A stretch of 64,000 nucleotides of DNA from Chloroflexota bacterium (GTDB taxonomy: Bacteria; Chloroflexota; Dehalococcoidia; DSTF01; RBG-16-68-14), in contig JAJCYW010000021.1 of the NCBI GenBank assembly GCA_029262675.1, forward strand, positions 130,146-194,145, in the 5' to 3' direction. Positions within the stretch are counted from its first letter, which is position 1. The number at the start of each line of letters is the position of its first letter. Of the stretch, positions 11,354 through 60,740 are shown piece after piece. The notes below the pieces were generated by a model. It did no database searches, was not told where the DNA came from, and saw only the letters and a list, made by a program, of their open reading frames with translations. A program made the translations under genes and the position numbers.

Positions 11354-13777
11354 ATGGCAACGTACAATCACGCTGAGATCGAGGCGAAGTGGAGCGCGCG
11401 CTGGGCGGAGACGGGCATCTACGAAACCGATGTCCGCACCGCGACGCGCCCCTTCTATAACCTGCTGATGTTCCCCTACCCGTCTGCGGAGGGACTTCAC
11501 ATTGGCAACATGTTCGCGTTTACGGGCGTCGACATCTTCGGCCGGCTGAAGGCGATGCAGGGCGAAGACGTCTTCGAACCGATCGGCTTCGATGCGTTCG
11601 GCATGCACAGCGAGAACTTCGCGCTGAAGCAGAACGTCCACCCTAGTGAGCTGGTACCGAACAACATCCGCAATTTCCGCCAGCAGCTCAAGTCGATGGG
11701 CGGGCGCTTCGCCTGGAGCCACGAGGTCGATACAACCCACCCCACCTACTATCGCTGGACGCAGTGGATCTTCGTGCAGCTCTTCAAGCACGGCCTGGCG
11801 GAGAAGCGCCTGGCGCCCGTCACCTGGTGCCCCTCCTGCATGACCGTGCTGGCAGATGAGCAGGTGATCAACGGGGAGTGCGAGCGTTGCAGCACGGAGG
11901 TGACCCACCGCGATCTGGAGCAGTGGTTCTTCAAGATCACAGATTTCGCCGACCGGCTGCTCTCCAACTTGGACGAGATCGACTGGACGCCGCTGATCAA
12001 GACCGCCCAGCGCAACTGGATCGGCCGCAGCGAAGGCCTGGAGACGGCGTTCCCTGTCGAGAACTCCAGCGAGTCGATCACGTTCTTCACGACGCGGCCG
12101 GACACGATCTACGGCGTCACGTTCATGGTGCTGGCCCCGGAACACCCGCTGGTGGACCAGATCGCGACCAGCGAGCAGCGAGAGGTCGTCGTCCAGTACG
12201 TAGCCGAGGCAATGAAGAAGACCGCCATTGACCGCCAGTCGATGGAGCGGAGTGGCGTCTTCACGGGGGCGTTTGCGACAAACCCGCTCAACGGCGACCG
12301 CGTGCCGATCTGGGTCGGCGACTACGTGCTGAGCACTGTCGGCACCGGCGCGATCATGGCTGTCCCCGCCCACGATACGCGCGACTTCGATTTCGCAAAG
12401 CGCTTCGACCTACCGATTCGCGTCGTCGTCGCTCCGCCGGACTGGCACGGCGCAGCTCTGGAAGACGCCTATACCGAGAGCGGCACAGTCGTCAACTCCG
12501 GTGAGTTCGACGGCATGGAGAACGAAGCCGCCGCAGCGGCCGTGATCGAGAAGCTGGAGAAGGATGGCGCCGGCAGCCGCCAGGTGCGTTTCCGCCTACG
12601 CGACTGGCTGATCTCACGACAACGCTACTGGGGCACACCGATTCCCATCATCCACTGCAAAACCTGTGGCCCAATTGCCGTGCCAGAGAGCGACCTGCCG
12701 GTTGAACTGCCGTACGTCGAGGATTTCCGCCCGACAGGGACGGATCAGTCGCCGCTCGCGTCCCTGCCGGAGTTCGTCAACGTCGACTGCCCCGAATGCG
12801 GAAAGCCGGCCCGCCGCGAGACAGATGTCTGCGACAACTTCCTGGACTCCGCCTGGTACTTCTTCCGCTACCCTTCGACGGGCAACGATGAGGCGCCTTT
12901 TGAACCGGAGCTGACGAAGCGCTGGCTGCCGGTGCATAACTACATCGGCGGCAAGGAGCATGCGGTGCTCCATCTGCTCTACACGCGATTCATCACGATG
13001 GCCCTGCACGAGATGGGCTTCATCGACTTCGAAGAGCCGTTCCGCAAGTTCCGCGCCCACGGGCTGCTGATCCTAGAAGGCGCCAAGATGAGTAAGTCGC
13101 GGGGCAACGTCGTCAACCCGGATACGTACATCGCTTCCCACGGCGCGGACACGCTGCGGACCTACCTCATGTTCTCCGGCCGCTACGAGGAAGGCGGGGA
13201 CTTTTCGGACTCCGGCATCGAGGGCGTCGCGCGGTTCCTCCAGCGCGTGCGGGATGTCTGCGAACGGTTCGTTGCGCAAGCCGGCGACGGCGAGCCGATG
13301 TCGCAGGAGGCGCAGCAGACGATGCACCGCGCGATCAAGAAGGTCGGTGCCGACATCGAGGAGTTGAAGTTCAACACCGCCATCGCAGCGCTGATGGAGT
13401 ACAGTCACGAGCTCCAGAAGCGGCCGTCGTTGAACAAGGACGAGGTGTCGATCTTCCTCAAACTGTTGGCGCCATTCGCGCCGTTCGTGACGGAGGAGCT
13501 CTGGGAGCAGATCGGACAGCCGTACTCCATCCACAACAGCGCCTGGCCCATAGCGGATGAAACGCTCGCCAAGCTGCAGGAGGTCTCGATCGCCGTCCAG
13601 ATCGACGGCCGCACGCGAGATGTCATCGAGATCGAGGCCGGTAGCGGTGAAGACGCTGCAGTCGCGGCGGCGAAGGCTTCGAAGAAGGTGCAGCGCCACC
13701 TGGAAGATGGCGCGATTGTGAAGACGATCTACGTGCCTGACAGGATGGTCAACTTCGTCACGTCAGGCAAGAAGTAG
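11354..13777 (+). CDS. leuS: Leucine--tRNA ligase (bacterial type)
   Basis: FYNLLMFPYPSAEGLHIGN HIGH region, KMSKS (GAKMSKSRGNVV), 807 aa. Confidence 0.95.
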   Translation: MATYNHAEIEAKWSARWAETGIYETDVRTATRPFYNLLMFPYPSAEGLHIGNMFAFTGVDIFGRLKAMQGEDVFEPIGFDAFGMHSENFALKQNVHPSELVPNNIRNFRQQLKSMGGRFAWSHEVDTTHPTYYRWTQWIFVQLFKHGLAEKRLAPVTWCPSCMTVLADEQVINGECERCSTEVTHRDLEQWFFKITDFADRLLSNLDEIDWTPLIKTAQRNWIGRSEGLETAFPVENSSESITFFTTRPDTIYGVTFMVLAPEHPLVDQIATSEQREVVVQYVAEAMKKTAIDRQSMERSGVFTGAFATNPLNGDRVPIWVGDYVLSTVGTGAIMAVPAHDTRDFDFAKRFDLPIRVVVAPPDWHGAALEDAYTESGTVVNSGEFDGMENEAAAAAVIEKLEKDGAGSRQVRFRLRDWLISRQRYWGTPIPIIHCKTCGPIAVPESDLPVELPYVEDFRPTGTDQSPLASLPEFVNVDCPECGKPARRETDVCDNFLDSAWYFFRYPSTGNDEAPFEPELTKRWLPVHNYIGGKEHAVLHLLYTRFITMALHEMGFIDFEEPFRKFRAHGLLILEGAKMSKSRGNVVNPDTYIASHGADTLRTYLMFSGRYEEGGDFSDSGIEGVARFLQRVRDVCERFVAQAGDGEPMSQEAQQTMHRAIKKVGADIEELKFNTAIAALMEYSHELQKRPSLNKDEVSIFLKLLAPFAPFVTEELWEQIGQPYSIHNSAWPIADETLAKLQEVSIAVQIDGRTRDVIEIEAGSGEDAAVAAAKASKKVQRHLEDGAIVKTIYVPDRMVNFVTSGKK

Positions 13778-13799: not shown

Positions 13800-14237
13800 C
13801 TAGGCAACGCAGAGCGACACGGTGACGTCCTTCTCCGTGAATGAGGAGTGGCGGTTGTCGAAGTCGAATCTATAATTGCCGCGAACCGTCCCGACAACCT
13901 CAAACTCAAGCTCGTGGGCACGATCGGTCTCGAACTGGACGACGCGGTTGGTCGGCGACCAGATGCTGAAGCCGATGTCCTGGCTATCGTTACCGGAGAC
14001 GCTGAACGTACCCGAGATCGTCTTGCCCTTCGGCACGTTGTAGAGCCACTGGCCCAGCGACCGTGCCTTAACAGAGAAGCCGATGTCTCCGCACTGTTGG
14101 CCGCCAGCCGTCGCCGCCAGCTCTGGCGCTCCGCCCAAGGTGACCGTCGCCGTTCCCAACTGACGATACATCAAGTAGCCCACGGACGCGCCCGCCGCCA
14201 GGATGGCGAACAGCGTAATCACGATCAGCTTCTGCAC
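13800..14237 (-). CDS. Hypothetical secreted or membrane-anchored small protein (N-terminal hydrophobic helix, beta-rich C-terminus)
   Basis: MQKLIVITLFAILAAGASVGYLMY... It is the last gene of the co-directional archaellum block. No family assigned. Confidence 0.35.
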   Translation of the reverse strand: MQKLIVITLFAILAAGASVGYLMYRQLGTATVTLGGAPELAATAGGQQCGDIGFSVKARSLGQWLYNVPKGKTISGTFSVSGNDSQDIGFSIWSPTNRVVQFETDRAHELEFEVVGTVRGNYRFDFDNRHSSFTEKDVTVSLCVA

Positions 14238-14340
14238 AGCGCGCTCCCTTACGCGTACTCCCTACGAGTACGCAAGCTCCGTAGGTGTATCCCCTACGTA
14301 TGTTCGGCAAGGCAGCGGGCATGCTTGAGGTTACGTCATG

Positions 14341-15507
14341 TTATGGCAAGTAGTCGAGCGGGTTGCGCCGCACCCCTCCCGCGATCAACTCGAAGTGGAG
14401 GTGCGTTCCGGTGCTGTATCCCGTGGAGCCGACGACACCCAGCGGCTCACCCTGGTGGACGCTCTGGCCGCTGGAGACGGCGAGCTGGCTTAAGTGCCCG
14501 TAGAGCGTCGTCATGCCAGACGGCGCGACGAGGATTACGTAGCGCCCGTACGAGCAACACGGGTCGCCCCCGGCAAACAGGACCACACCATCGTGCGCGG
14601 CCAACACGGGCGTACCGGGAGCCATCGTTTGGTCGACATCGATGCCGAGCGGGTGTGCGGCAGAGAAGTACGACGAGATCGGCCCGACCACGGGCCAGAC
14701 CAGGTCGTTGGTGGCGCCCGCTTCGAGGTCGAGGACCGAGTTGGGGTAACCATAGGTGGCAGCAAACGAGAGCACCTGGGCTACGTACGGCCAGGAGTGA
14801 TTATACGTGTAGATTCCTTGCCGCACGTCGACGTCCGCTCCGGCGTCCAGCAGAAAGCGGCCCATGGCCGGGATCGCGTCGCGGAAGTCGTAGGGGTCGC
14901 CACCCTCGCCGAAGGTCTCCCAGCTAGACGGCAGGAACTGGCCGTAGCCGATGGCGCCCGCCCAGCTCGTCGACATGTTGCGGCCGAGGTCGCTCTCAAC
15001 CTTGGCTATCGCCGCGAAAAGCTGCCACGGCAGACCAGTCTCCTGACTGACCTGGAGCATGACAGCGAGCTGATCGACAGGAATATCGAGTCCGCCCGAA
15101 CCAAGCGCCGATACGGTGATGCTGCCCGGCCGCAGGCTGAGGACGGGCCAGACGCGCGCGTTCGTCGAGAGGTCGCCGCGACCGCTACCTCCAACAGAAG
15201 AGCCAGGCCCCACGGCCAACGCACCTTCCGGCACCGCATAGTGCAGGACCACCGTCGGTGTGGGCGGACCACCGTCGCCGTCGCCGCCGAGGACAGCGTC
15301 TGCCGCGTCGCCGTCGTCGTCCGCGCCACCGGCGTCCGTGCGCACATCGCCGGACGCGGCGTCATCGCCCTCCACTGGCGCAACCTCCGACGCCGGCGCA
15401 CCGATATAGCCCACGAAGTCCGACCTCGCGGCGTAGGCCGAGACGGCTACGGCGGCGAGTCCTATCAAGAGGGTCGCTGCGATGATGGCGCGCGTGAAAA
15501 GAGACAT
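14341..15507 (-). CDS. Bifunctional peptidoglycan hydrolase: SLT-domain lytic transglycosylase fused to an M23 (LytM) metallopeptidase
   Basis: SLT motifs (AIAKVESDLGRNMSTSWAGAIGYGQFLPSSW), then C-terminal M23 motifs (GTPVLAAHDGVV...YGRYVIL...HLS...GSTGYSTGTHLHFEL). The start is set at MSLFTRAII (ATG 15505-15507), which has a signal-like transmembrane segment. The track start at 15597 adds an Arg/Pro-rich extension. Confidence 0.75.
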   Translation of the reverse strand: MSLFTRAIIAATLLIGLAAVAVSAYAARSDFVGYIGAPASEVAPVEGDDAASGDVRTDAGGADDDGDAADAVLGGDGDGGPPTPTVVLHYAVPEGALAVGPGSSVGGSGRGDLSTNARVWPVLSLRPGSITVSALGSGGLDIPVDQLAVMLQVSQETGLPWQLFAAIAKVESDLGRNMSTSWAGAIGYGQFLPSSWETFGEGGDPYDFRDAIPAMGRFLLDAGADVDVRQGIYTYNHSWPYVAQVLSFAATYGYPNSVLDLEAGATNDLVWPVVGPISSYFSAAHPLGIDVDQTMAPGTPVLAAHDGVVLFAGGDPCCSYGRYVILVAPSGMTTLYGHLSQLAVSSGQSVHQGEPLGVVGSTGYSTGTHLHFELIAGGVRRNPLDYLP

Positions 15508-15538
15508 GAGATCGATTATCGCCTGAGCCGTTGCCGAC

Positions 15539-16045
15539 CTAGGCCGCGACGTCCTCGTCTTCCGCGGACGTGGCGGGCAGCATGGCGCGGATCTCACGCA
15601 GCTGTTCGGCGAGTTCGTTTATCGGCACGTCTTCGATGCCTTCCGTCAGGCTGGTCAGTTCTGTAGACACAACGCCTACCTCGAACGCGGAGAGCGGGTC
15701 GTCGTCAGCGGCTTCTTCGACCGGCGGCTCGTTGGCCAACTCGTCGGCCTCAGCTAGAGGACTCTCGGGCTCCGCAGCCTCGTCCGCCAGTTCCGCGTCA
15801 AGAGCGTCAGCTTCCGGTGCCAGACTCGGCTCAACTTCGCTAGATGCCGATTCCGCATCGATTGCCCGGGGCAGCGCGCTCTGCTGGGTCCGCAGGTCCG
15901 GCTTGGCGCTGGCCGTGCCTGGCTCGGCCGCAGCGCCCGTGGGCATCAGCAACCCCTCATCTTCGCTAACGTCGGCCAGCGACGCGTCTGCGCCATCCTC
16001 CGAACCCTCATCGTTGCCTTTCTTGAACCGTGATAACAGTCGCAT
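15539..16045 (-). CDS. Highly acidic low-complexity protein (Asp/Glu/Ala-rich), unknown function
   Basis: ORF immediately downstream of the FlaJ-like gene (2-nt gap). No recognisable domain. Confidence 0.35.
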   Translation of the reverse strand: MRLLSRFKKGNDEGSEDGADASLADVSEDEGLLMPTGAAAEPGTASAKPDLRTQQSALPRAIDAESASSEVEPSLAPEADALDAELADEAAEPESPLAEADELANEPPVEEAADDDPLSAFEVGVVSTELTSLTEGIEDVPINELAEQLREIRAMLPATSAEDEDVAA

Positions 16046-16046
16046 G

Positions 16047-17657
16047 CTACGGGCCTCCTGACGGGATCGTGGACGCGCCGGGCGCGACCGGATTAGTGGC
16101 GATGCTGTCGAAGATAGAGCCGACGAGTGATGGAATGATGAGGAACGCCACGCCGGAGATCATCATCATCACTGCCGCATAAAGGCAGAGCTTCATCCGA
16201 TGACCGCCGACGGCTGCGTACGGCGCGAAGCTGTTGGCGGCCGTCAGCATCAGCGCGACCGTCGCAACGAACACAGGAATGAACTCCAGCGATGAGAACT
16301 GAAATAGCAGCACATCGCCCACGCCGGCTTCGGTAGTGATGCCGCCTTCCAGGCTCTCCTGCTGGGCCTTGCCGATCTCTCCGCCAAAGACCTGCACGAC
16401 CTCCGTGATGAACAACAGGATGCCCATCAGAACGGCGTGCATCGGCACTGCCACGAAACTGAACGTCGTCGCGACCATCTTCCTGTCCGCGCGCAGAAGC
16501 CAAATCTTCATCGCAAACTCCGAGGCGAGCGTCGAGACTTTTTCGGTATCGCCGCCGACGCGGACTCCGTCCCAAAACACACGCACGCAACGAACGACGA
16601 GGTCACTGCCGGTCTCAGACGCAAGGCGCAACCAACACAAGTCTGGCGAGATGCCGTTCTTCAGCCGCACGTAGAGCCTGTGCACGTCCGGTTCCAGTGA
16701 CCCGAGCGAACGGCGATTGAGGCGGCTTAGACCGTCGGTTGCCGTAATACCCGCCGATGACATCACGCCACCCAGTCCGCGTATGAACGCGGAGATGTCA
16801 CGGTCGTAGCCATCGATTCTCCAATCGTCCATTATCGCCAGTACGCCGACCGGGGCGATGAAGACGGCTCCGGCTAGCAGCGCATACGGCATGCCCAACA
16901 TCCGGCCCGCGCCACAGCCCGCGATGACGGCGGCCGGGATCAAGAACTTCGCGGTCCGATCAATGCGGCGCTGTTCTTTCGATTTCTGCTTGAGGCTGTG
17001 AGTTTTCACTTCGACAGGCGCTACCGTGTAGATCAGCCAGCCGCCGACAAAGGTGACGCAGATCATCAGCCCCGTAAGGCCGACGATCGTAATCGGGCTA
17101 AACGGGTAGATCATCATCGACACCAGCGAGATGACGACGACGAGCGTTGCGGAGACCATCAGCGCGACGTAGGCATCCGACCACTTCTGGAGCGATTCGA
17201 TTTTGCGGCCGTACTCCTTGCCAAACATCTCGCGTTGGAGAGCCGACTCTCGCATCAGAAAGGCCTCTTCCTTCTCCCCGGAGGAGAGGGACGTGGCGAA
17301 GTGGAGGAGCAGGTTGCGCACGCTATCGACCTTGATCCGGTCTGCGACTACTTCGCAGGCGCGCGAGTAGTCGTAGTTCAGCCGCTGCGCGACGAGATGC
17401 ACTTGGCGGAAGAACTTCGAAGTGCTGTACGAAAGGCTGGACGTGCCTTCGAAGAGCGACGTCCGGCTCATGCCCGACGTCGACACCGCCGACATGTGCG
17501 TGAGCTGCGTCAGCAGGTCGTAGTCGAGCGGTTCGCGGCTGAGCAGCCGGTCGAGGTCGATCCTGCGAGAGAGCCCCGACTCGCTGGCGACCACCTGCTC
17601 TACTACGTCAGACGAGTCCTTGTCGTTGGGCTTTACTGAAGACTTGGTAGAGGTCAT
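16047..17657 (-). CDS. arlJ: Archaellum assembly polytopic membrane protein FlaJ/ArlJ-like (two fused T2SS-F/TadC-like domains)
   Basis: 536 aa, at least 7 predicted transmembrane helices, two repeated GspF/TadC-like cytoplasmic domains in one polypeptide (archaeal FlaJ architecture; bacterial TadB/TadC are separate). It follows the FlaI-like ATPase. Confidence 0.65.
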   Translation of the reverse strand: MTSTKSSVKPNDKDSSDVVEQVVASESGLSRRIDLDRLLSREPLDYDLLTQLTHMSAVSTSGMSRTSLFEGTSSLSYSTSKFFRQVHLVAQRLNYDYSRACEVVADRIKVDSVRNLLLHFATSLSSGEKEEAFLMRESALQREMFGKEYGRKIESLQKWSDAYVALMVSATLVVVISLVSMMIYPFSPITIVGLTGLMICVTFVGGWLIYTVAPVEVKTHSLKQKSKEQRRIDRTAKFLIPAAVIAGCGAGRMLGMPYALLAGAVFIAPVGVLAIMDDWRIDGYDRDISAFIRGLGGVMSSAGITATDGLSRLNRRSLGSLEPDVHRLYVRLKNGISPDLCWLRLASETGSDLVVRCVRVFWDGVRVGGDTEKVSTLASEFAMKIWLLRADRKMVATTFSFVAVPMHAVLMGILLFITEVVQVFGGEIGKAQQESLEGGITTEAGVGDVLLFQFSSLEFIPVFVATVALMLTAANSFAPYAAVGGHRMKLCLYAAVMMMISGVAFLIIPSLVGSIFDSIATNPVAPGASTIPSGGP

Positions 17658-19347
17658 AGAAGTTCGTGACGTCCTGTTCCTTCAGGCGTTCAAACAACGC
17701 CGCTCTGCGCTCCAGTTCCTGGTAGATCATGCGCTTGTTCTCGGGCGAAAGGCCACGCTTCGGGGCCAATTGGTTCTCCAGCAGGTAGCTGTTCATGTTT
17801 CCCGTGAACTCGTGGACGTCCGTCGCGGAGTTCCAGCGGAACGACTCGACGAACGCAAAGGAATCGCTCGCCTTGTCGTACGCGACGAGCTCGTTGACGC
17901 TGATGATGCGGCGGCCGGGCTTGCCATTGGGCAGGCGCACGGCGCTGCAGATGATTGCCAGGTTGAGGTTATCGACGTAGACTTTCGGCACGTTGATCGG
18001 GCTACCGGTGAGACGCTGGATCAGTTTCTCCACAGTCGATGCGTGGAACGTCGCCATCACAGGGTGGCCCGTCTGCATCGCCTGGAACGCGATCGCCCCC
18101 TCCTCACCACGGATCTCACCGATAACGATTAGGTTGGGACGCTGACGAAGAGCGGCCTTCAGCAACCCGAACATCGTGACCCCGCCGTCTCCTTCCGACA
18201 ACGACCCGCGGACGACCTCCCGAATCCAGTTCGGGTGGGGCACCTGGAACTCCGGCGTGTCCTCGATACTGACGATCTTGGCGTCCGGCGGCACAAAAGC
18301 GGCCAGGGCGTTCAGCAGCGTCGTCTTGCCGGACGCGGTTTCGCCGGAGACAAAGGCGTTCATGCCCGCGCCGATCATCATCGTCAGATAGGCCGCCATC
18401 GTGTAGTCCATAGCGCCGAAATTGATCAGCTCTATCAGGCTGATGGGCGTCTCCTGAAACTTTCGAATGGTGAAGTTGCTGCCGGATCTTGAGACGTCCG
18501 ACCCAAAGACGATGTTGATTCGAGAGCCGTCCAGCAGCGTCGCGTCGACGATCGGGTTGCGGTACGTCACCGGCTTACCGATCCGTTCCGCCAGGCGGAG
18601 GACGAATTCGTCCAGCTCGTCGTGCGTCTCCCACGTGATGTTGCTCTTGAGGCCATCGAAGATCTTGTGCTCGATGAAAACCGAACCGAGGCCGCTACAG
18701 CTAATGTCCTCAATGTTGGGGTCACGCAGAAGGGGCTCCAGCGCGCCCATGTGGAGCTTGTCGCGGATCAACACGTACTTCAGGGCCGCCATCTCTGCAC
18801 TGGTGACCTTGATTGGGCCGGCCGAGTCTGCCCCGGAGCCCTTCTTCATGAATCCGAGCAGGCCCCCGCCACCGTCCCGCTTCTTGCCGTCACCGTCTGT
18901 GACGGCGCAGTTCTCATCAACGGCGCGCAACAGGACCTCCGCTTTCTGCTCGTCCGTCTCCGCCGCCGAGAGCTCTTCGACGTAATCGAGGAGGCGCTGA
19001 TCCATCGCCTCGAGGATCGCGTGTAGGTTCTCGAGCATCGCCGGCTCGATCGAGATGTAGAAGTCGCGGGAGTCTTCGGGATCCGGGCAGATGTGGACGA
19101 AGAGTTCTTCGTTGACGCGGTAGATTAGGTTCTTGTTCTCTAAGTCTGCCAGTTTGCGGCTCGCCTCTGGAAAGTACTCGGGAACTCCCACGTCCTTGAT
19201 CGGCACCTGGTGCAGGTAGTGCATCAGGTGCGGGGCGTTCTCCGCCTGTTGCTGAAGCTCGTCCGGAAGCAGGCTCTTAACCGAGCAGTTGGACCCGCCA
19301 CAGTCCTCGGTGCCGGATTCCGGATCGACGGCAAACGGTAGCGCCAT
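17608..19347 (-). CDS. arlI: Archaellum/type IV filament secretion ATPase FlaI/ArlI-like (VirB11/GspE superfamily)
   Basis: Walker A GETASGKTTLLNAL, SIEDTPE Asp box, Walker B LIVIGEIRGEE, His box TFHAS, and a long FlaI-like N-terminal domain. 579 aa. Confidence 0.8.
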   Translation of the reverse strand: MALPFAVDPESGTEDCGGSNCSVKSLLPDELQQQAENAPHLMHYLHQVPIKDVGVPEYFPEASRKLADLENKNLIYRVNEELFVHICPDPEDSRDFYISIEPAMLENLHAILEAMDQRLLDYVEELSAAETDEQKAEVLLRAVDENCAVTDGDGKKRDGGGGLLGFMKKGSGADSAGPIKVTSAEMAALKYVLIRDKLHMGALEPLLRDPNIEDISCSGLGSVFIEHKIFDGLKSNITWETHDELDEFVLRLAERIGKPVTYRNPIVDATLLDGSRINIVFGSDVSRSGSNFTIRKFQETPISLIELINFGAMDYTMAAYLTMMIGAGMNAFVSGETASGKTTLLNALAAFVPPDAKIVSIEDTPEFQVPHPNWIREVVRGSLSEGDGGVTMFGLLKAALRQRPNLIVIGEIRGEEGAIAFQAMQTGHPVMATFHASTVEKLIQRLTGSPINVPKVYVDNLNLAIICSAVRLPNGKPGRRIISVNELVAYDKASDSFAFVESFRWNSATDVHEFTGNMNSYLLENQLAPKRGLSPENKRMIYQELERRAALFERLKEQDVTNFYDLYQVFSKAQRQGLV

Positions 19348-19364
19348 GACGCCCTAACGCTCCC

Positions 19365-20090
19365 CTACGCCTTGGCCCGCGTAATCGGCACGATGCGCAT
19401 ACCCAGGTTGGGCTCCACGTCAAAGCTGATCACGTTACCCGTGCTCTTCACGGCGCCGCGGATCTTAGAGACCTCCAGCGCCTTCACCAACTGGTCTCCC
19501 ACCTCCTCGACCCGCAGCCGCATGTGAGCGTCACAGATGGAGCGCAGGCGTATGAACATCTGCTCGCTGAAGACGTGGGAGTGCATGGTGAATATCAGCG
19601 TCTTGCCGAGATCGCAGAACTCCTTACAGAGCGTAAAGAACGTCAGCGTGTCCTGGTCCTGAACGTGCGACACGAATGTCGTCAGCGAATCGACGATGAC
19701 GATGTCGAAGCGATCGGCATGCTGCGCGATGTGCGCGCGCAGCGTCTGGAACACCTGCTGCGAATGTATTTCGTCGAAGGCCTGCGGCACCGGGTAGATG
19801 CTCATCTTGCCCAGCAGGAAGTAGTCCTCGACGCCGAGGCCGAGGTCCTCCATCTGGTTGAGCAGGCTGCGCGTCGTGTTCTCCGTTGTATAGAAGAGCA
19901 CGCGCAGGCCGTCGCGCAGTCCGCCCCACGTCAACTGCTGGACGAGCACGCTCTTGCCGGCATCCGACTGGCCCTCGATCAGGCTGAGGGACCCTTCAGG
20001 GATTCCGCCCGCCATCTTCTTGTCCAGCTCGATGTTACCCGTGCTGATGAGCCGCTTTGCCTTGCGGTCCGGCGCGAAACTTGCAGCCAT
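19365..20090 (-). CDS. arlH: KaiC/RecA-like ATPase FlaH/ArlH-like
   Basis: 241 aa with Walker A LIEGQSDAGKS and a single-domain KaiC-like fold, sitting between FlaG-like and FlaI-like genes as in archaeal fla operons. Confidence 0.7.
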   Translation of the reverse strand: MAASFAPDRKAKRLISTGNIELDKKMAGGIPEGSLSLIEGQSDAGKSVLVQQLTWGGLRDGLRVLFYTTENTTRSLLNQMEDLGLGVEDYFLLGKMSIYPVPQAFDEIHSQQVFQTLRAHIAQHADRFDIVIVDSLTTFVSHVQDQDTLTFFTLCKEFCDLGKTLIFTMHSHVFSEQMFIRLRSICDAHMRLRVEEVGDQLVKALEVSKIRGAVKSTGNVISFDVEPNLGMRIVPITRAKA

Positions 20091-20100
20091 ATTTGCCTCT

Positions 20101-20601
20101 CTAGATGCTGAAGAACGATGCCGCTGAGATGCCGAGCTCGGTCGTGACCTGCAGCCAGTGACTGCCGGCTCCGGCCGCGGGGCCGAGCTTGGCGCGGATG
20201 GTCATGCTTTCGCCGGCGTTGAGCACACGTGGATCGATCACGTCGTTGTCGATCGAGAGGACGCGCCAGCTGTTATCCGGCTGCGGCGATGTCACGGTAG
20301 TGAAGTCCAGGTACGTGTTGTAGGTGGTGCTGGCAGCCGTGTACTGAATCAGCATGTCTACCTTCGAAAAGTCGACGACAGCGGTCGCTCCGTCGTTGCG
20401 AACGACGACATCGATATCGGCGCCGCTGACGTTTATCGACGTGATCGAAATATCGCTGCGCACGCGCTCGACGCTCAGCTCCTCGGCGTCCTGCCAGGAG
20501 TCGCTCAGCGTGCGGAACGAGCTGAACCCGCTGCGCCCCAGCATCAGCGAGGCGATGACGAGGATGGTTACAGCCAGGAGCGCGGGCAGGACGCTATCCA
20601 C
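20101..20601 (-). CDS. arlG: FlaG/ArlG-like archaellum protein (N-terminal transmembrane helix plus beta-sandwich)
   Basis: GTG start after GGAGGGGA. MDSVLPALLAVTILVIASLML transmembrane helix then a beta-rich domain. The position after the FlaF-like gene matches the archaeal flaF-flaG-flaH order. Confidence 0.5.
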   Translation of the reverse strand: MDSVLPALLAVTILVIASLMLGRSGFSSFRTLSDSWQDAEELSVERVRSDISITSINVSGADIDVVVRNDGATAVVDFSKVDMLIQYTAASTTYNTYLDFTTVTSPQPDNSWRVLSIDNDVIDPRVLNAGESMTIRAKLGPAAGAGSHWLQVTTELGISAASFFSI

Positions 20602-20613
20602 AGATCCCCTCCA

Positions 20614-21057
20614 TCACAGCGTGAAGAACTTGGAGTCCTCGACGCCGTTGGCGGCGACGACCTTCAGGTAGTAGGTATTGCCCGTCGCAAGCGCCGTCGT
20701 AACGTAAATGGTGATATGCAACGTGGCGGTGGGGTTCCACTCGGTATCGTTCTCCAGCGTGTACTCCCAACACGGCGCCGTGCAGCTCGCGCCGCCGTAC
20801 GGGATACGCTGGAAGTCCGTCTCCGGCCCGAAGAAGACGTCCGACTGCGTGATGGCGCTGATGCGCGTGGCGCCCGTGTTCTTCACCCAGGCATCGGCCT
20901 GCGTCGCGGTATCCTGGCCGATGGCATGAATGATCTCCACGCGGCTGCTGAGCCGATCGTCCGCGACCTCTGCCGACGACACGAGCGCCGTGCCGGCTCG
21001 GCTGATGGCCGGCATCAGCGCCGTAATCACGGAACCGATGGCAACGATGGCTGCCAC
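20614..21057 (-). CDS. arlF: FlaF/ArlF-like archaellum protein (N-terminal transmembrane helix plus beta-sandwich). The true start may be an upstream non-AUG codon, extending to about 21090.
   Basis: Transmembrane helix AAIVAIGSVITALMPAI, then a beta-rich domain with a CTAPCW motif. The in-frame upstream sequence IEKSIATILLTV directly follows AAGGAGAG and has no ATG/GTG/TTG. Confidence 0.5.
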   Translation of the reverse strand: MAAIVAIGSVITALMPAISRAGTALVSSAEVADDRLSSRVEIIHAIGQDTATQADAWVKNTGATRISAITQSDVFFGPETDFQRIPYGGASCTAPCWEYTLENDTEWNPTATLHITIYVTTALATGNTYYLKVVAANGVEDSKFFTL

Positions 21058-21119
21058 GGTGAGCAGGATGGTGGCGATGGACTTCTCGATGTCAGTCTCT
21101 CCTTAGGGCCGGGACCGGG

Positions 21120-22091
21120 CTACCGCACGCGGCGCAGGCGGGCTCCCCGCCTGCGTGGCAGCCTGATCACGCGCTCTCCATGCACGATTGCGTCCAACTG
21201 ACGCAGTACGACAAGACACTCATTTACGCTCACCGGCACGTCGTCGCCGGGATCGTCGTCGCCGGAGTTGTCCAGTTCGGCCAGGAACTCCCGGGCCTCA
21301 TCGGGTAGCAGCTCCGCGAACGCTGCCAGCTTGAGAACGAAGCGGTACCTGCGGGGGCCGAGGGTCGCCAGCGCCTCCTCCGCCCAAACGGCCAGTCCAG
21401 CGACAGACGCAAGCGTCCACGTCTGCTGATCATTACGTTCCGGCTGTCGCGCGCGTGCCGGCTGTCGTTGTCCGGCCGGACGTTCCGTCGTAGCGGGCGC
21501 GTCCTCGTACTCGTCTACTGCGGCGTCTTCGCCGATTTCAGCAGCCAGTTCCGCTGTCTCGTCTGCATCCAGCTCCTGCGACGCGACGGGCCGTGAGGCG
21601 CCGGCCGGCGATGACTGCTGGCCGGGAGCCCCCGGGTAGCGGATGATGTTGGTCACGGCCGGCGCTGGTGGCTGCATGGGCGCGGCCGTCGACGGCATCG
21701 GCGCTGGCGGCTGTACCGGTGCGGCCGGCGGCGGCATCAGCGTTGGCTGCTGGACCGGCGGGCCCTGCGGCGCTGGCGCGAGCGACGGCATCGCGGGCGC
21801 GACGCCGCCCGCCTGCGCGGCCATGGGCTGTGCGGCGGGCGCCCCGCCAAACGTAGGTATTGCAATAGACTCGACGCTCGGTATTTCTAGAACGCGCTTG
21901 GGCCTGGCCGGTTCTTCGTCTGGCTCTGCGAACTGCGTGGGCCGGGAAGACGTTGGAATGGTGGTATCGGCGGAGAAGGGGTTGTCCTGGGACAACACGG
22001 CGGTACGGATCTCCTTCAGGACAGCCTTAATCTCGCCCTTAAGGAGCTTAACCTCATCCTGGAGCGTCGCTACCTGACTGTTCAGTTCCAT
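21120..22091 (-). CDS. Coiled-coil and proline-rich protein at the FlaCDE/FlaX position of the cluster (function unknown)
   Basis: N-terminal heptad-like MELNSQVATLQDEVKLLKGEIKAVLKEIRTAVL, a long Pro/Ala/Gln-rich linker, and an acidic C-terminal domain. It lies between the archaellins and the FlaF-like gene. Confidence 0.35.
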   Translation of the reverse strand: MELNSQVATLQDEVKLLKGEIKAVLKEIRTAVLSQDNPFSADTTIPTSSRPTQFAEPDEEPARPKRVLEIPSVESIAIPTFGGAPAAQPMAAQAGGVAPAMPSLAPAPQGPPVQQPTLMPPPAAPVQPPAPMPSTAAPMQPPAPAVTNIIRYPGAPGQQSSPAGASRPVASQELDADETAELAAEIGEDAAVDEYEDAPATTERPAGQRQPARARQPERNDQQTWTLASVAGLAVWAEEALATLGPRRYRFVLKLAAFAELLPDEAREFLAELDNSGDDDPGDDVPVSVNECLVVLRQLDAIVHGERVIRLPRRRGARLRRVR

Positions 22092-22161
22092 GACATCCGT
22101 GCCTTTCTCCGCGAGACGCTTGTACCATGTTGCGCATCCCGCGCCGGTTCAGCGTTGCGCG

Positions 22162-22758
22162 CTAGTGAAGCTGCATGACGGCCCTTAGCTCCGTCGGTAG
22201 CTGGCGCGTGATATCTAACGTGGCTCCCACAGGCGTCTGAATCTCGAACGTGAACCGTTCGTTCGGGTCCAACGTCGGCACCGGTGTAATCGCCCCGCCG
22301 TCAACATCAACGGTTATCAGCATTAGCTCGCCCGGTTCCAGCAGCGTGTCGGTATCGCCTACGATCGTCGTCACGGCATAGGTGACATCGTTGTCCACGA
22401 CGTTGTCGTCGCGATAGGCCACTACGGTACGGTTGTTGACGCCCGCCGGGTTCAGCGGTACGGACTCACCTCCCGCGGTGGTCGCCACGGTGAGCTGGAT
22501 ATCATCCACCACAAGCGTGGCTCCCGTAGCGGTGACGACGACGCCACCGCGTATCTCCATCGTGCCTCGTGCTTTCTCCAGGCCTGCGAACACGGTTTCC
22601 TTCCCTCGTTCCGCGCTAAAGACTCCGGTGGTCAACACCACGAAGGCGAAGATCGTGGCGACTACAACGAACGCGATAAGGATGATCGCTGTTTCCAGTC
22701 CCGTGATTCCTCGTTCCCCGTTCGTCGCTCGTGTCAGTAGCTTGCTTACTCTGTTCAT
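22162..22758 (-). CDS. arlB: Archaellin (archaeal flagellin FlaB/ArlB family), copy 2
   Basis: A 17-aa basic class III signal MNRVSKLLTRATNGERG, then ITGLETAIILIAFVVVATIFAFVVLTTG (archaellin N-terminal hydrophobic domain, cleavage after Gly). 198 aa, with an NRT sequon. Confidence 0.8.
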   Translation of the reverse strand: MNRVSKLLTRATNGERGITGLETAIILIAFVVVATIFAFVVLTTGVFSAERGKETVFAGLEKARGTMEIRGGVVVTATGATLVVDDIQLTVATTAGGESVPLNPAGVNNRTVVAYRDDNVVDNDVTYAVTTIVGDTDTLLEPGELMLITVDVDGGAITPVPTLDPNERFTFEIQTPVGATLDITRQLPTELRAVMQLH

Positions 22759-22895
22759 ATTCCGACCTTCCGTCTACGGGTATTCCCCTAGGGGAAGTGT
22801 CGGCAGCTACTAGGGACTTCAAGAGGGTGTAGCCATTTTCGCGTTTGTCAACCGGCACCCTCGCTCGCTTCATTTGGTTCCAACCCATTCTCTTG

Positions 22896-22923
22896 CTGCG
22901 GTTGTGGGCGGGCGCCTGTTTCG
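22896..22923 (-). terminator. GC-rich hairpin between the two archaellin genes (candidate intrinsic terminator for arlB1)
   Basis: GGGCGGGCGCCtgtttcGGCGCCCGCCC, an 11-bp perfect stem 45 nt downstream of the arlB1 stop. No clean U-tract on the minus-strand sense. Confidence 0.35.
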
Positions 22924-22967
22924 GCGCCCGCCCATCCTGGTTTCGATTCTTGTGCACTTGCTCTGCG

Positions 22968-23561
22968 CTAGTGCAACTGCATCACAGTCCGCAGCTCCGC
23001 CGGAAGCGTACGGGTGATGTCCATGGTTGCGCCGACTGGCGTCTGGATCTCGACCGTGAACTTCTCGTTCGGGTCCAGCGTCGGGGCCGGCGAAACTCCC
23101 GTGGCGACGTCGATGGCGATCACCTTGAGCTCACCTGGCTCCAGGAGCGTGTCGGTGTCACCGACGACGGTTGTCACCGTGTAGGTCACGTCGTTGTCCA
23201 CGATGTTGTCGTCGCGGTAGGCGATGACCGTCCGATTGTTGGTGCCCGACGGGTTAATCGGCACCGGCTCACCACCGGCGCTGTTGGCGACGGCGAACTG
23301 AATGTCATCGACTGCCAGCGTGGTGCCGACGGCCGTGACGACCACGCCACCGCGAAGCTCCATGCTGCCTCGCGCCTTCTCCAGGCCCGCGAACACCGTC
23401 TCCTTACCTCGCTCTGCGCTGAAGACACCAGTCGTCAGCACGACGAAGGCGAAGATGGTCGCTACGACCACGAAGGCGATGAGGATGATGGCCGTTTCCA
23501 GGCCGGTGATGCCCTGCTCACTGCGAGCGGAGCGGTCAAGAAGCATCTTCATCTTCTTCAC
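22968..23561 (-). CDS. arlB: Archaellin (FlaB/ArlB family), copy 1
   Basis: GTG start after AGAGGAGG+6 nt gives a 17-aa signal (M)KKMKMLLDRSARSEQG. The mature N-terminus is identical to copy 2 over about 50 aa. 198 aa. The track start 23615 is a likely over-extension. Confidence 0.8.
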   Translation of the reverse strand: MKKMKMLLDRSARSEQGITGLETAIILIAFVVVATIFAFVVLTTGVFSAERGKETVFAGLEKARGSMELRGGVVVTAVGTTLAVDDIQFAVANSAGGEPVPINPSGTNNRTVIAYRDDNIVDNDVTYTVTTVVGDTDTLLEPGELKVIAIDVATGVSPAPTLDPNEKFTVEIQTPVGATMDITRTLPAELRTVMQLH

Positions 23562-23828
23562 TACAAACCTCCTCTGTTGGCCGTAGTAGACGCTAGCGAG
23601 GAGCATTCTGCTCACTGCCCAACGCCTTTCTGGCCGTTGCTACCTTTCTTGCCCTCATCGGCATCTGTGCCGTTAGAGCGTGTCCACCGCGCGGTGCTTC
23701 CCGATCCCCTGGGGCGTCCTGCCCTGGGTGTAGGGTCTGCATCAGCATCGCCTACGGGCTGCAAGGAGAAGAGTAGGGATTCCCAAGAACATCGGCTGCA
23801 GGGTCACCTAATGCCGTTCCCTACGCCG

Positions 23829-25724
23829 TTACTCGTCTTTGCTCGGGGCGGCTTCGGAAACAGAGATCAACTGTGTGACGAAAAGGTCTAGCGTGATGAC
23901 AGAACCTTCGTCTGCTGGAGAAACGTCCAAGATGCCCCAGTGCGTCATGAACCCAAACGATGTGAAGCGGCCCAGCCGTATGCCATAGGAATCGCCTTCG
24001 GACTCGGCAAGCATCAATTCCCAGGGTTCAGTCGTCAGGAGCTCCTCGTAGAGCGGCGAAATCGCCGCGACAGGCTCCGTGCTCGTCCATTCGATGTGGT
24101 ACGGCAGCGGATCGCCTTCGCCAGCGTCTCGTAGCCTGCTGCCTTGCGGCAACGGGAAGTCGTCCGGAACCACCTTTAGCACCTCTGAGGGCCCGAACGG
24201 ATCGTAGGTCTGCGTGAAGGGTGGCGCGTGACCGAGATAGGCCGACGTGAAGAATGAAGCTGAAATGACTACGGCGGCCAGTGCGAACGCGGCCAGCGGT
24301 CGCAAGCGGACGGGCGTCGCCGAACGTTCTGCATTGGCGTCAGCGGACAGCGTAGGTCCACCGACTGCCGGCGCCTCAAGCGCTGCTGCCGCCTCGGGCG
24401 CGGCCGCACCTTCTTCACGCCCATTCCGGTTGACAGCCAGCGCCAGCAGGCCCACGACGGCCAGCACCAACGGCGTTATCCAGTAGATGCCGTTCGTGGG
24501 CGAGATGAAGCTGGCAGGCAGCACGGAGATGCTGCCGTCCGCCTCGACGACGCCAACCTGGACATCGACCGCAGGGAACGGCGTGGCGTGCTGGCTGGCA
24601 AGCATTGCAGCGTAGAAACCGATGAGGATGACGGGGATCAGGATGCTCCACTTTAGGTCGGTGCGCAGCAGCAACACCGCTGCGACGGCCAGTATCCCCC
24701 AGTCGTAGAAGTTCGCGTACGGCGTGACGATCAGCATGCCGAGAGCTGCGGCCGCCATCGCGACCGACCGCACGCCCTGCGCCCAGGCGACGACGACGAC
24801 GCCGAGGCTGAGGAACGAGAGAACCAAGGCCAGCATCGGGATCGGCTCGATGCCGCTGCTAATCAGAAAGCCCTGCCAGGCGTACTGCCACGACTGTTGG
24901 TACGGGAGGAGGTTGTCTCTCGCGTCGGCGCTGAGGTCGAAGAAGCTGGATATGTACGGGCCGACGTTGCTAAAGCCGACGGCGGCAAACCCGGCGACTT
25001 CCAACACGAGCGTTCCGGCCACCATCGCGGCGAGCGCTCGGCCGTTGCGGGTCCAGAGTAGGTAGAGCCCCGGAACGGCCGCATACTGCGGCTTCAGCAC
25101 CAATACAGCGAAGCAGAGTCCGGCCAGAATCGGATGCCGCTTCAGCAGCAAGAACCCGCCAAGCGCGGACAATGCCAGCATTGATGTCATATGACCTAAC
25201 CGAAGCGCCCAATGCATCTGCGGCAGGCTGATGATACCCAGCGCCACCGCCAGCTTCCCTTCAATTGAATTCACATTGCGCTGGGCGATGAATGCAATCG
25301 CCAAGACAGCTAACATCCCGAGGCCGACGTAGACGCGATAAGCGTTGTGAACATGCATCCACGACAGTGGATGCATGACGAGCGAGAGGCCCGGACTGTA
25401 GAGTCCGTTGATGTTCAGGTTAGCCGCATCATCATAGAAGTTGGCGAAATCGCCCATTCGGTCGGCCGTCCACCACATCTCGAGCGTCTCCGGAAGGACG
25501 GCGGCCAGTACCGCAAGTTCGACTCCGACGATGACGAGCAGGGACAGTGATGCGAGAGCGGCCAGCCGTGCGGGCCGGATCGCGCCCGGTCGCCAGCGCA
25601 CGACGGTATCCAGAGCGAGCGTTGTCACTGGTCGAACCTCCTCGGTGGCGTCGGGCCGGCCGCGGCCGTCGACTAGTTCATTGTTGCCGGATGCACGCAA
25701 GCGTGGCAGTAGGGCCGCCCCCAA
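23829..25724 (-). CDS. Large polytopic membrane protein, putative GT-C-fold/DUF2029-like glycosyltransferase with a C-terminal extracytoplasmic domain
   Basis: About 13 predicted transmembrane helices, a first extracytoplasmic loop with acidic DRMGDFANFYDD, and a roughly 170-aa soluble C-terminal domain. It is co-directional with and immediately upstream of the archaellin genes. The family assignment comes from architecture only. Confidence 0.35.
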   Translation of the reverse strand: MGAALLPRLRASGNNELVDGRGRPDATEEVRPVTTLALDTVVRWRPGAIRPARLAALASLSLLVIVGVELAVLAAVLPETLEMWWTADRMGDFANFYDDAANLNINGLYSPGLSLVMHPLSWMHVHNAYRVYVGLGMLAVLAIAFIAQRNVNSIEGKLAVALGIISLPQMHWALRLGHMTSMLALSALGGFLLLKRHPILAGLCFAVLVLKPQYAAVPGLYLLWTRNGRALAAMVAGTLVLEVAGFAAVGFSNVGPYISSFFDLSADARDNLLPYQQSWQYAWQGFLISSGIEPIPMLALVLSFLSLGVVVVAWAQGVRSVAMAAAALGMLIVTPYANFYDWGILAVAAVLLLRTDLKWSILIPVILIGFYAAMLASQHATPFPAVDVQVGVVEADGSISVLPASFISPTNGIYWITPLVLAVVGLLALAVNRNGREEGAAAPEAAAALEAPAVGGPTLSADANAERSATPVRLRPLAAFALAAVVISASFFTSAYLGHAPPFTQTYDPFGPSEVLKVVPDDFPLPQGSRLRDAGEGDPLPYHIEWTSTEPVAAISPLYEELLTTEPWELMLAESEGDSYGIRLGRFTSFGFMTHWGILDVSPADEGSVITLDLFVTQLISVSEAAPSKDE

Positions 25725-54482: not shown

Positions 54483-54486
54483 AAAC

Positions 54487-56658: not shown

Positions 56659-56665
56659 GGGTCTC

Positions 56666-59592: not shown

Positions 59593-60522
59593 CTATGGCA
59601 GCTCGATTCGCGACGTGTACGTGGAAGTGTCGTAGGCGAACCACATGTCGGCGCCCGAACTGCTGTCGACGATCAGCTTGAGCTCGAGCATGTCCGTCGC
59701 CGGCACGGTGTAATCAACTGCCGGTATGCTCAGCGTCTTCACCACCCAGGTCCCGGAGCCGGCCTGCCAATCGCTCTCCGTCAGCGACCCGCTGGCGATC
59801 TCTGTGTACGAAGCGCCGTCGTAATGCCGAAGGTAGACAGTGATGCTGCCGGCGACGCTCAGGCTGAAGTTCTGGATGGCGCTGGCGAGCACAACAGTCA
59901 CGTTGCCGTCGATCACCTGGTCAGCGGCGAAGGCCGACGTCCGCCATGACTGGTGCAGCGTCGTGCCGGTCTCCGCTGGGCCTGAGCCGCCAGCGGCGAT
60001 CAGCAGACCGGCGTCCGCGTCTCGATCGCTGTCGTAGTTGTAAAGCGTCGTTGCGGTGGAGAGCGTCTTGTCGAACGGCAGCAGCGTTTGCGACGCCGTG
60101 TCGCCCACGGGCGGCGAGGGGTTGTTGTGCAGATAGTAGCGCTCGACGCCCGGCATCGGCAGCAGGCCGGACGCCACCGCGCCATTCGAGGCGACGAACG
60201 TAAGCGTGTAGTGCGTGCCCATCGCCAGCGGCGAGGCGAGCTGCAACGTGACGTGGAGCGTGGCCCGTGGGTTCCACTCGACATCGTTCTCGAACTCGTA
60301 GCTCCAGCACGGCGCCGTGCAGCCGGAGCCGCCGTAAGGCAACCCTTGGAGCGCGCCGCTGGGGCCGAAAAAGACATCGCTGCGTTCCACCGAAATGATG
60401 CGGCTGCCACCAACGTTCTTGACCCAAGCCTCCACCTGCGTGCCGCCCGGTTCGCCCCAGACCTCGACGACATCCAGCAGCGTGCTCTGGCGGTAGCTAG
60501 CGCGGTCGAAGCCGGCGACCAT
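59593..60522 (-). CDS. FlaF/ArlF-like paralog with a roughly 170-aa C-terminal extension. An in-frame upstream transmembrane helix suggests a non-AUG start near 60627.
   Basis: EAWVKNVGGSRIISVERSDVFFGPSGALQGLPYGGSGCTAPCWSYEFENDVEWNPRATLHVTL aligns closely with the cluster FlaF-like protein (DAWVKNTGATRISAITQSDVFFGPETDFQRIPYGGASCTAPCWEYTLENDTEWNPTATLHITI). Upstream in-frame: IDKSITTVLLVVAIVIGIGL after AAGGAGG. Confidence 0.5.
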   Translation of the reverse strand: MVAGFDRASYRQSTLLDVVEVWGEPGGTQVEAWVKNVGGSRIISVERSDVFFGPSGALQGLPYGGSGCTAPCWSYEFENDVEWNPRATLHVTLQLASPLAMGTHYTLTFVASNGAVASGLLPMPGVERYYLHNNPSPPVGDTASQTLLPFDKTLSTATTLYNYDSDRDADAGLLIAAGGSGPAETGTTLHQSWRTSAFAADQVIDGNVTVVLASAIQNFSLSVAGSITVYLRHYDGASYTEIASGSLTESDWQAGSGTWVVKTLSIPAVDYTVPATDMLELKLIVDSSSGADMWFAYDTSTYTSRIELP

Positions 60523-60740
60523 GACGCTGCCCGAGCGGCCGAACGCGGGCGTGATGAGGTTCGCCGTCAGGCCGATGCCGATGACAATGGCGACGACCAG
60601 CAGTACAGTAGTGATGGACTTGTCGATGGCGCGGCCTCCTTGCCCCGACGCGGCCAGCGTCGGAAGCTACTACTAGCATGAACGCTCGTAGCGTGGCGGC
60701 AGCGCAGTCCGAAAACGCCGATTAGGCTGGGGAAAGTCCC

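Follow-up and report, generated by a model that had tools for sequence, protein, structure and literature searches.

Evidence for an intact archaeal-type archaellum cluster in a Chloroflexota chromosome, with candidate genes for fitting its motor into a bacterial wall

Can the genes of an archaeal rotary filament form an intact operon in a peptidoglycan-walled bacterium, and what might fit such a machine into that wall? Both questions are raised by a block of genes on the minus strand at positions 13800-25724 of a 64-kb stretch of DNA, referred to as the window herein, whose host is a Chloroflexota bacterium with metagenome-assembled genomes (MAGs) of Dehalococcoidia as its closest relatives. 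The block (Table 1) comprises 12 co-directional open reading frames (ORFs), all of them intact, and includes the core set arlB1, arlB2, an ArlC/D/E-like gene, arlG, arlF, arlH, arlI and arlJ. A first-pass annotation of the DNA had described this interval as a co-directional archaellum (archaeal flagellum) cluster. Every gene that it listed was found there, and the models PF01917, NF004723 and NF058587 were passed, so that the observation is real and well beyond chance. Its description held for the core genes, but the interval also contains four genes that are not archaeal archaellum genes, encoding a GT87 glycosyltransferase, an acidic protein of 168 residues, a peptidoglycan hydrolase with SLT and M23 domains and a GOLD-domain protein. 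From the identity, order and intactness of the genes, all read directly from the DNA, and from their conservation and linkage in related genomes, we put the probability at roughly 0.88 that the block is an archaellum operon of the arl2 type in a Chloroflexota chromosome.

Both archaellins passed the PF01917 cut-off of 29.5 bits and also matched the class III N-terminal domain TIGR02537 above its cut-off. The two proteins are 197-198 residues long and 77% identical to each other. The longest ORF of arlB1 extends to 23615, but translation probably begins at the GTG at 23561, which a GGAGG precedes; with this start, the ArlB1 signal peptide is as long as that of ArlB2. The predicted class III signal peptides are MKKMKMLLDRSARSEQG for ArlB1 and MNRVSKLLTRATNGERG for ArlB2, each followed by a mature protein that begins with ITGLETAIILIAF. 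When ArlB2 was compared with solved structures, the best PDB matches were archaellum filaments, first among them the bacterial archaellum of Litorilinea aerophila (9i5h, E 9.4e-36). Since this alignment starts at I18, which corresponds to residue 1 of the processed protein, cleavage is predicted after G17, between MNRVSKLLTRATNGERG and ITGLETAIILIAF. For the hairpin that follows arlB1, a 91-nucleotide segment folds at -41.7 kcal/mol (z = -5.7), and none of 200 shuffled sequences folded as well; no U tract was found 3' of the hairpin at 22906-22933. The element may act as a terminator or attenuator, or may stabilise mRNA, and so determine how much archaellin is made relative to machinery. Consensus scans did not rise above chance for promoters (one promoter-like site, 2.4 expected) or for terminators (8 terminator-like sites, 6.4 expected).

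ArlH scored 285.9 bits on NF004723 (cut-off 194), and its best PDB match was FlaH (4yds, E 2e-33); the protein carries the Walker A motif GQSDAGKS and a probable Walker B motif, DIVIVDS. On the FlaI equivalog model NF058587 (cut-off 550), ArlI, which has the Walker A motif GETASGKTT, reached 651.5 bits; no other model exceeded 177. The 3' end of arlI overlaps the start of arlJ by 50 nucleotides, and the same gene calls were obtained in the read assembly L081 (L-numbers denote comparison loci, P-numbers protein records). The ArlJ protein has six hydrophobic segments and matches Pfam T2SSF in two stretches. Its three best NCBIfam matches were all to ArlJ/FlaJ models (E 2e-123, model positions 30-522 of 525) but, at 412 bits, below the equivalog cut-off; the position of its gene beside arlI and the two T2SSF stretches support the assignment.

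Pfam and NCBIfam scans of the coiled-coil protein of 323 residues were empty even at E = 5, and its identity came only from profile-profile comparison. We compared the profile of its family (A3) by hhalign with that of the archaeal gene that lies between arlB and arlG in arl2 loci of Archaeoglobus, Methanosarcina and 'Ca. Methanoxibalbensis' (A4), and the two aligned end to end with a probability of 99.7% (E 6e-26). Both families have an N-terminal coiled coil with NPF at its end, followed by a variable linker and, at the C-terminus, a helical ArlD/E-like domain. The archaeal A4 proteins have sub-threshold Arch_fla_DE and FlaC_arch matches, whereas the window protein has none. By position and profile orthology, we assign the protein as the ArlC/D/E component; the first-pass annotation had listed FlaC/D/E as missing, which the profile match overturns. 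The linker of the window protein is long, Pro/Ala-rich and acidic, and holds two tandem 39-nucleotide repeats that are 82% identical (window 21660-21737). Such a repeat fits the wide variation in linker length among relatives, in which the protein has 193 to 337 residues.

The two stator proteins gave weak matches, far below the cut-offs, when searched as single sequences against the NCBIfam ArlF and ArlG models. As family profiles they could be told apart. The profile of the 147-residue family (A1) matched the soluble domain of FlaG (5tug/6pbk) at E 1.8e-16. The profile of the 166-residue family (A2) matched FlaF (4p94) at E 4.7e-12, with FlaG behind at 5.7e-6, and ArlF itself scored 31.3 bits on Pfam FlaF_Ig-like (cut-off 28.4). 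The first family is thus FlaG and the second FlaF, so that the order is arlG then arlF, which is the arl2 arrangement described for Chloroflexota in PMC12488501. The first-pass annotation had listed these two kinds of protein in the opposite order. In archaea, ArlF binds the cell envelope. In the nearest relatives of the window, three independent Chloroflexota assemblies from different samples (L112-L114), ArlF is 350 residues long (L112 4431-5483, L113 4428-5480, L114 4423-5475), with an insertion of ~180 residues between the N-terminal helix and the Ig-like domain that gives a weak Pfam AF_1625_C match; the window ArlF does not have this insertion.

Table 1. Features of the arl block and the unlinked ArlG paralogue, by window coordinates.
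Feature	Position	Strand	Evidence or note
GT87-family (GT-C type) membrane glycosyltransferase, first gene of block	23829..25724	-	PF09594 83 bits (cut-off 25)
arlB1, archaellin 1	22968..23561	-	PF01917 85.9 bits; TIGR02537
GC-only 11-bp hairpin (GGGCGGGCGCC-GAAACA-GGCGCCCGCCC)	22906..22933	-	perfect stem, directly after arlB1 stop
arlB2, archaellin 2	22162..22758	-	PF01917 86.4 bits; TIGR02537
ArlC/D/E-like protein, 323 aa	21120..22091	-	profile match to archaeal arl2 ArlD/E-position gene
arlG, stator protein, 147 aa, N-terminal membrane helix and Ig-like domain	20614..21057	-	profile A1 against FlaG
arlF, stator protein, 166 aa	20101..20601	-	profile A2 against FlaF; Pfam FlaF_Ig-like
arlH, KaiC-like ATP-binding motor regulator	19365..20090	-	NF004723; FlaH 4yds
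arlI, hexameric assembly and rotation ATPase	17608..19347	-	FlaI equivalog NF058587
arlJ, polytopic membrane platform, two T2SS-F-like halves	16047..17657	-	ArlJ/FlaJ models; Pfam T2SSF
Small acidic protein, 168 aa	15539..16045	-	no family, no membrane helix
Membrane-anchored SLT_2 + M23 peptidoglycan hydrolase, 388 aa	14341..15507	-	Pfam
Membrane-anchored GOLD/EMP24-like beta-sandwich protein, 145 aa, last gene of block	13800..14237	-	PF01105 41.4 bits (cut-off 25.9)
ArlG2: N-terminal membrane helix, ArlG-type Ig domain, 190-aa C-terminal jelly-roll domain	59593..60627	-	ArlG similarity; AlphaFold

A cluster with this gene content could nevertheless be a silent or decaying relic that builds no filament, or could serve adhesion or biofilm formation only. 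This is the alternative that survives best, and we consider it unlikely. Microscopy of cultivated SAR202 isolates that carry arl clusters showed no archaella (PMC10444878), and the window itself lacks peptidase and che genes, yet the eight core genes and the accessory genes of the locus are intact. Between the window and L112-L114, moreover, ArlI (79-81% identical) and ArlH (79-84%) are more conserved than LeuS (70-71%). The failure to see filaments elsewhere is weak evidence because expression of the cluster in L. aerophila is confined to particular conditions, under which the organism then swims (PMC12488501).

Less probable still is that the cluster encodes a Tad/Flp pilus, or a type IV filament of another kind that does not rotate (an archaeal adhesion pilus, a Ups pilus or a bindosome, for example), and merely resembles an archaellum. 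All of these systems belong to one superfamily, and ArlI also matched BasE, TadA and VirB11 models, as ArlJ did generic T2SSF. The ArlI scores on these models, however, were 177 bits for BasE (cut-off 1000) and 173.5 bits for the TadA family (cut-off 373), and the FlaI model was passed. Against the structure of S. acidocaldarius FlaI (4ii7) ArlI scored 437 bits, compared to 161 bits against CpaF. The archaellum-specific proteins ArlH, ArlF, ArlG and ArlC/D/E are all encoded, in arl2 order, and the filament proteins match archaellins, including that of the filament of swimming L. aerophila (PMC12488501). The platform is a single fused ArlJ rather than a TadB/TadC pair, and archaellins of this length are not small Flp proteins. 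The affinity to Tad/Flp systems that the first-pass annotation had named as an outcome that would refute its claim was not observed, and the archaellins matched 9i5h best.

The surroundings of the block are bacterial, as had been proposed. The block lies between a divergent glutamate dehydrogenase (GDH) gene (25848-27104, plus strand) and the convergent leuS (11354-13777, plus strand), whose product scored 931 bits on leuS_bact and 199 on leuS_arch. MutS1 and MutL are also encoded in the window, and the remaining neighbours are ordinary metabolic genes and regulators. GC content at third codon positions (GC3) runs from 0.71 to 0.87 in the cluster genes, inside the range of nearly all other window genes, in agreement with the earlier view that the cluster has no foreign composition and was acquired long ago. 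The same arl block is present in L112, L113 and L114, with GDH upstream in L112 and L113 and LeuS downstream in L112 and L114; the genes beside leuS in the window, for a peptidyl-prolyl isomerase (PPIase), a 2-hydroxyacid dehydrogenase and an HpcH aldolase, are also present in L114. A misjoin of archaeal DNA to a bacterial contig, through contamination or chimeric metagenome assembly, is the least credible reading and in effect already refuted. In its favour, every one of the closest relatives is a MAG. Against it, both junctions (GDH/GT87 at one end of the block, hydrolase, GOLD and LeuS at the other) recur in L112, L113 and L114, and ArlH, ArlI, ArlJ, the acidic gene and the beginning of the gene after it are also contiguous in L081, an independent Logan read assembly. 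GC3 is uniform over the block, the operon includes a peptidoglycan hydrolase, and the arl proteins are 20-30 percentage points closer to Chloroflexota than to any archaeon. Taken together, synteny with the flanks, homogeneous GC3 and conservation exclude contamination and a recent insertion and indicate vertical inheritance under purifying selection.

Among species-representative genomes, the nearest relatives of ArlI are Dehalococcoidia/Chloroflexota MAGs, at up to 73% identity, followed by Archaeoglobus, Methanosarcina and related archaea at 51-53%. In a midpoint-rooted neighbour-joining tree, a single Dehalococcoidia clade contained the window, grouped with L003, L001, L002 and L004; archaeal sequences fell into a clade of their own. 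As this tree has no outgroup, nesting within Methanotecta is taken from the published analysis, in which a transfer from Methanotecta with arl2 clusters was inferred for Chloroflexota archaella (PMC12488501). The horizontal acquisition of an archaeal archaellum by a bacterium, as put forward in the first-pass annotation, is supported. We take the cluster to descend from that ancient, already described transfer from Methanotecta-like Euryarchaeota, with vertical inheritance thereafter.

The annotation had supposed that archaella in bacteria are sparsely documented; they are in fact already published (PMC10444878, PMC12488501, PMC13319060). A survey of 3,780 Chloroflexota genomes by Sivabalasarma et al. 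(Nat Microbiol 2025; PMC12488501) identified archaellum loci in 243 of them (243-244 loci surveyed); the study also solved the L. aerophila filament at 2.7 Å and showed swimming, and among Chloroflexota an ATP-driven rotating filament with swimming has been demonstrated in that organism only. In the L. aerophila system, processing occurs at Ile29, the gene order is arl2, the signal peptidase is encoded outside the locus and CheF is absent (PMC12488501). Lim et al. (Nat Commun 2023; PMC10444878) described flaB-flaGFHIJ clusters in cultivated SAR202 and placed most bacterial flaB genes in Dehalococcoidia. A 2026 paper proposed PilN/PilO-LysM as the wall-crossing scaffold in L. aerophila and stated that the anchoring of archaella in peptidoglycan-making Chloroflexota lacking PilN/PilO is unknown (PMC13319060).

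Set beside these systems, the window locus has the same set of genes in one locus as L. aerophila and other Chloroflexota arl loci (arlB copies, ArlCDE-like, arlG-arlF, arlH, arlI and arlJ), and, as in L. aerophila, the mature archaellin begins with Ile after Gly, and the locus includes neither a signal peptidase gene nor CheF. The window differs from L. aerophila in that it holds no pilN/pilO-LysM genes; instead, genes for the acidic protein, the SLT+M23 hydrolase and the GOLD protein follow arlJ, and a GT87 gene precedes arlB. It also differs from L. aerophila and the other Chloroflexota loci in a second, unlinked ArlG with a jelly-roll domain. With the SAR202 member 'Ca. Lucifugimonas marina' (PMC10444878) the window shares the class Dehalococcoidia and the order flaB then flaGFHIJ, whereas SAR202 has six tandem and six scattered flaB copies compared to two in the window locus, and SAR202 ArlI is only ~55-57% identical to that of the window. 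SAR202-like loci (L015, L017, L019, L021, L025, L026 and L070) have no recognisable ArlCDE-like or standard ArlF gene, and two of them, L017 and L070, encode ArlF/G-like proteins with two jelly-roll domains. The order arlB, arlD/E-like, arlG, arlF, arlH, arlI, arlJ is identical in the euryarchaeal arl2 operons of Archaeoglobus, Methanosarcina and 'Ca. Methanoxibalbensis', with the ArlI and ArlCDE-like homology given above. The differences from these are that the window host is a peptidoglycan-walled bacterium and that the linker of its ArlCDE-like protein is Pro/Ala-rich.

The first-pass annotation had seen no prepilin peptidase or chemotaxis adaptors in the window and supposed that such components are encoded elsewhere or replaced, and our Pfam and NCBIfam scans, which covered 53 of the 57 called ORFs, likewise found no A24 prepilin peptidase, che, PilN or PilO genes in the window. 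The only polytopic membrane ORFs in the window are ArlJ, the GT87 protein, a HAAS-domain membrane protein, an MFS transporter, an HPP protein and a VIT1 protein. The absence of the class III signal peptidase and CheF from the window agrees with the published Chloroflexota loci.

Downstream of arlJ, the operon continues with bacterial genes. The hydrolase probably starts at the ATG at 15507 (the longest ORF extends to 15597) and consists of an N-terminal membrane helix, an SLT_2 lytic transglycosylase domain (31.3 bits, cut-off 24.3) and an M23 metallo-endopeptidase domain (Peptidase_M23, 90 bits, cut-off 28.7). We take ES...GYGQF...YNHS and HLH to be its putative SLT and M23 catalytic motifs, respectively. 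A database search returned ~80 near-full-length orthologues with 46-72% identity. All eight full-length orthologues that were examined on long contigs (L002, L003 and L112-L117) lie just downstream of arlJ, and a small gene separates arlJ from the hydrolase gene in each of the seven of these loci that have gene calls. Their outer neighbourhoods are of at least three kinds: GDH/GT87...LeuS in L112-L114, an arginase gene among others in L115, and an upstream patatin gene in L116/L117. M23 genes also stand beside arl clusters in L004 (downstream), L007 and L010 (upstream of arlB) and L030 (fused with the upstream gene). A metagenome scan with the hydrolase returned only generic M23 matches, confined to residues ~240-388, and arl genes were near none of these 30 loci, which served as a negative control.

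The small acidic protein had no Pfam or NCBIfam match even at E = 5 and is probably disordered. Its conserved features are a basic tip at the N-terminus, the motif EEGLxM and, at the C-terminus, a DDxLSxF...DLEDVP..ELLAEAREIR helix. A small gene with no Pfam match lies between arlJ and the hydrolase gene in L112-L117 and L004, and a gene related to that of the acidic protein precedes the M23 gene in L007 and L010. The GOLD-domain gene, which converges on leuS, follows the hydrolase gene in L003 and L112-L115 and is absent from L116/L117. At the other end of the block, the GT87 protein has eight hydrophobic segments, and its gene lies directly upstream of arlB in L112-L114 at 58-62% identity; no GT87 gene was found beside arl in L116/L117, L002, L003 or 80 species-representative loci. 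We considered the GT87 protein as a core archaellum part and rejected this, given that its place beside arlB is conserved in no relatives but the nearest, L112-L114. The gene does not belong to the archaeal arl set. None of the hydrolase, acidic, GOLD and GT87 genes occurs in the archaeal arl loci. The terms M23, transglycosylase and hydrolase are not mentioned in PMC12488501 or PMC13319060, nor are endopeptidase, glycosyltransferase and GT87 in PMC12488501, and no publication in the literature searched combines archaellum, Chloroflexota and M23. The extension of an arl operon by the acidic, hydrolase and GOLD genes in one Dehalococcoidia sub-lineage may be new, as may the jelly-roll domain on an unlinked ArlG paralogue.

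A second ArlG-type protein, ArlG2, is encoded 39 kb away, between a NuoF-like gene and MutS, and is 46% identical to ArlG (E 1e-41). The matching public protein record (P0124, 309 residues) starts at an internal ATG and so has no membrane helix. The helix is encoded in frame upstream of this ATG, where an ATC codon stands 7 nucleotides after the Shine-Dalgarno sequence AAGGAGG. Translation probably starts at this ATC, which would restore the helix and give a protein of 344 residues; orthologues of 325-331 residues cover 94-96% of this long form, and the orthologue P0128 is encoded at the same NuoF-MutS position. The AlphaFold model of ArlG2 has a mean pLDDT (predicted local distance difference test) of 83.6. 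The C-terminal domain had no sequence match in Pfam or PDB, and the lead comes from the predicted fold only, which resembles a carbohydrate-binding type of jelly-roll. Tandem copies of the domain are present on the ArlF/G-like proteins encoded within the L017 and L070 arl clusters, and it is widespread in Chloroflexota proteins of ~230-560 residues, one of which has a prepilin-type N-terminus. The ~180-residue ArlF insertion of L112 is unrelated to the domain. ArlG2 could plausibly be a wall- or glycan-binding extension of the stator.

How these parts might work together, including expression, filament assembly, rotation and the role of every accessory gene, we infer by homology with archaeal systems and the experimentally tested L. 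aerophila system. A class III signal peptidase, its gene lying beyond the window, would cleave the two pre-archaellins behind Gly17. Docked on ArlJ and driven by ATP, ArlI would first build the filament from archaellins and afterwards turn it, with ArlH modulating ArlI. ArlG and ArlF would form the stator, anchored in the envelope, and the ArlC/D/E-like protein a cytoplasmic ring or switch complex. Bacterial genes have been added to the operon in this sub-lineage: the hydrolase, anchored by its transmembrane helix, may open a local gap in the murein for motor and filament, much as FlgJ/SltF or VirB1/PrgK do, and the acidic protein, the GOLD protein and ArlG2 may help to control the opening of the gap or to anchor the stator in the bacterial wall.

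Peptidoglycan hydrolases dedicated to one machine include FlgJ/SltF of the flagellum, VirB1 of type IV secretion systems and PrgK of pCF10, which combines LytM, SLT and CHAP domains. The window enzyme resembles these in that a murein-cleaving enzyme is encoded inside the operon of a machine and, as in PrgK, SLT and M23/LytM domains are joined on a membrane-anchored protein; it differs in accompanying an archaeal-type motor. The odds seem to us evenly balanced that the archaellum operon of one Dehalococcoidia sub-lineage recruited a wall-handling module, made up of the hydrolase, its acidic partner, the GOLD protein and ArlG2, as an alternative to PilN/PilO-LysM. A weaker suggestion within this proposal is that the acidic protein takes the place of an adaptor of the CheF type, which is missing.

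Several observations count against an intact working archaellum with a wall-handling module of its own, in addition to the bare cells of the SAR202 isolates. ArlH reached 207.9 bits on the ArlH equivalog model, just below its cut-off of 215, and the 412 bits of ArlJ fall below the curated equivalog cut-off of 570. The neighbour-joining tree, for want of an outgroup, is in itself no proof that the bacterial sequences nest within Archaea. With no class III signal peptidase, che, PilN or PilO gene in 64 kb, the completeness of the system cannot be shown. In the hydrolase, the sequence at the first M23 zinc-ligand motif reads HPLGID, in which HxxxD cannot be clearly recognised, and part of the linkage of hydrolase and arlJ could stem from common descent in a single clade instead of from function.

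Elsewhere in the window, we observed several features apart from the archaellum genes. A 5S rRNA gene (30872-30988, minus strand, 92.8 bits) stands alone and seems to be unlinked from other rRNA genes, since no 23S or 16S rRNA gene was found in the 64 kb. A low-GC patch at ~54000-57000 (GC 0.57-0.58, compared to ~0.65 elsewhere) contains a gene (54487-56658, plus strand, GC3 0.59) for a 723-residue KAP-family P-loop NTPase that is weakly similar to QatA, an anti-phage ATPase; the gene may have been acquired recently and serve defence. At 38495-39628 (plus strand), where GC dips locally to 0.594, a gene for a 377-residue protein, with GC3 of 0.57 and a NucS_C endonuclease-like match as its only domain match, is possibly foreign DNA. 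Two adjacent half-size genes of the cobalamin-independent methionine synthase (MetE) type, encoding 324 and 326 residues, lie at 45219-46193 and 46190-47170 (plus strand) with an overlap of 4 nucleotides; a single full-length metE is absent.

An archaeal motility motor in bacteria is an important finding that has already been published, together with structural and motility data, and this locus adds an intact member from a high-GC Dehalococcoidia lineage. The hydrolase downstream of arlJ and the jelly-roll of ArlG2 provide testable candidates for how a motor that arose in archaea, which lack murein, was fitted into the murein sacculus. If it holds, the wall-handling module would address how archaella are anchored without PilN/PilO, the question posed in PMC13319060, and by extension how the filament crosses the wall.

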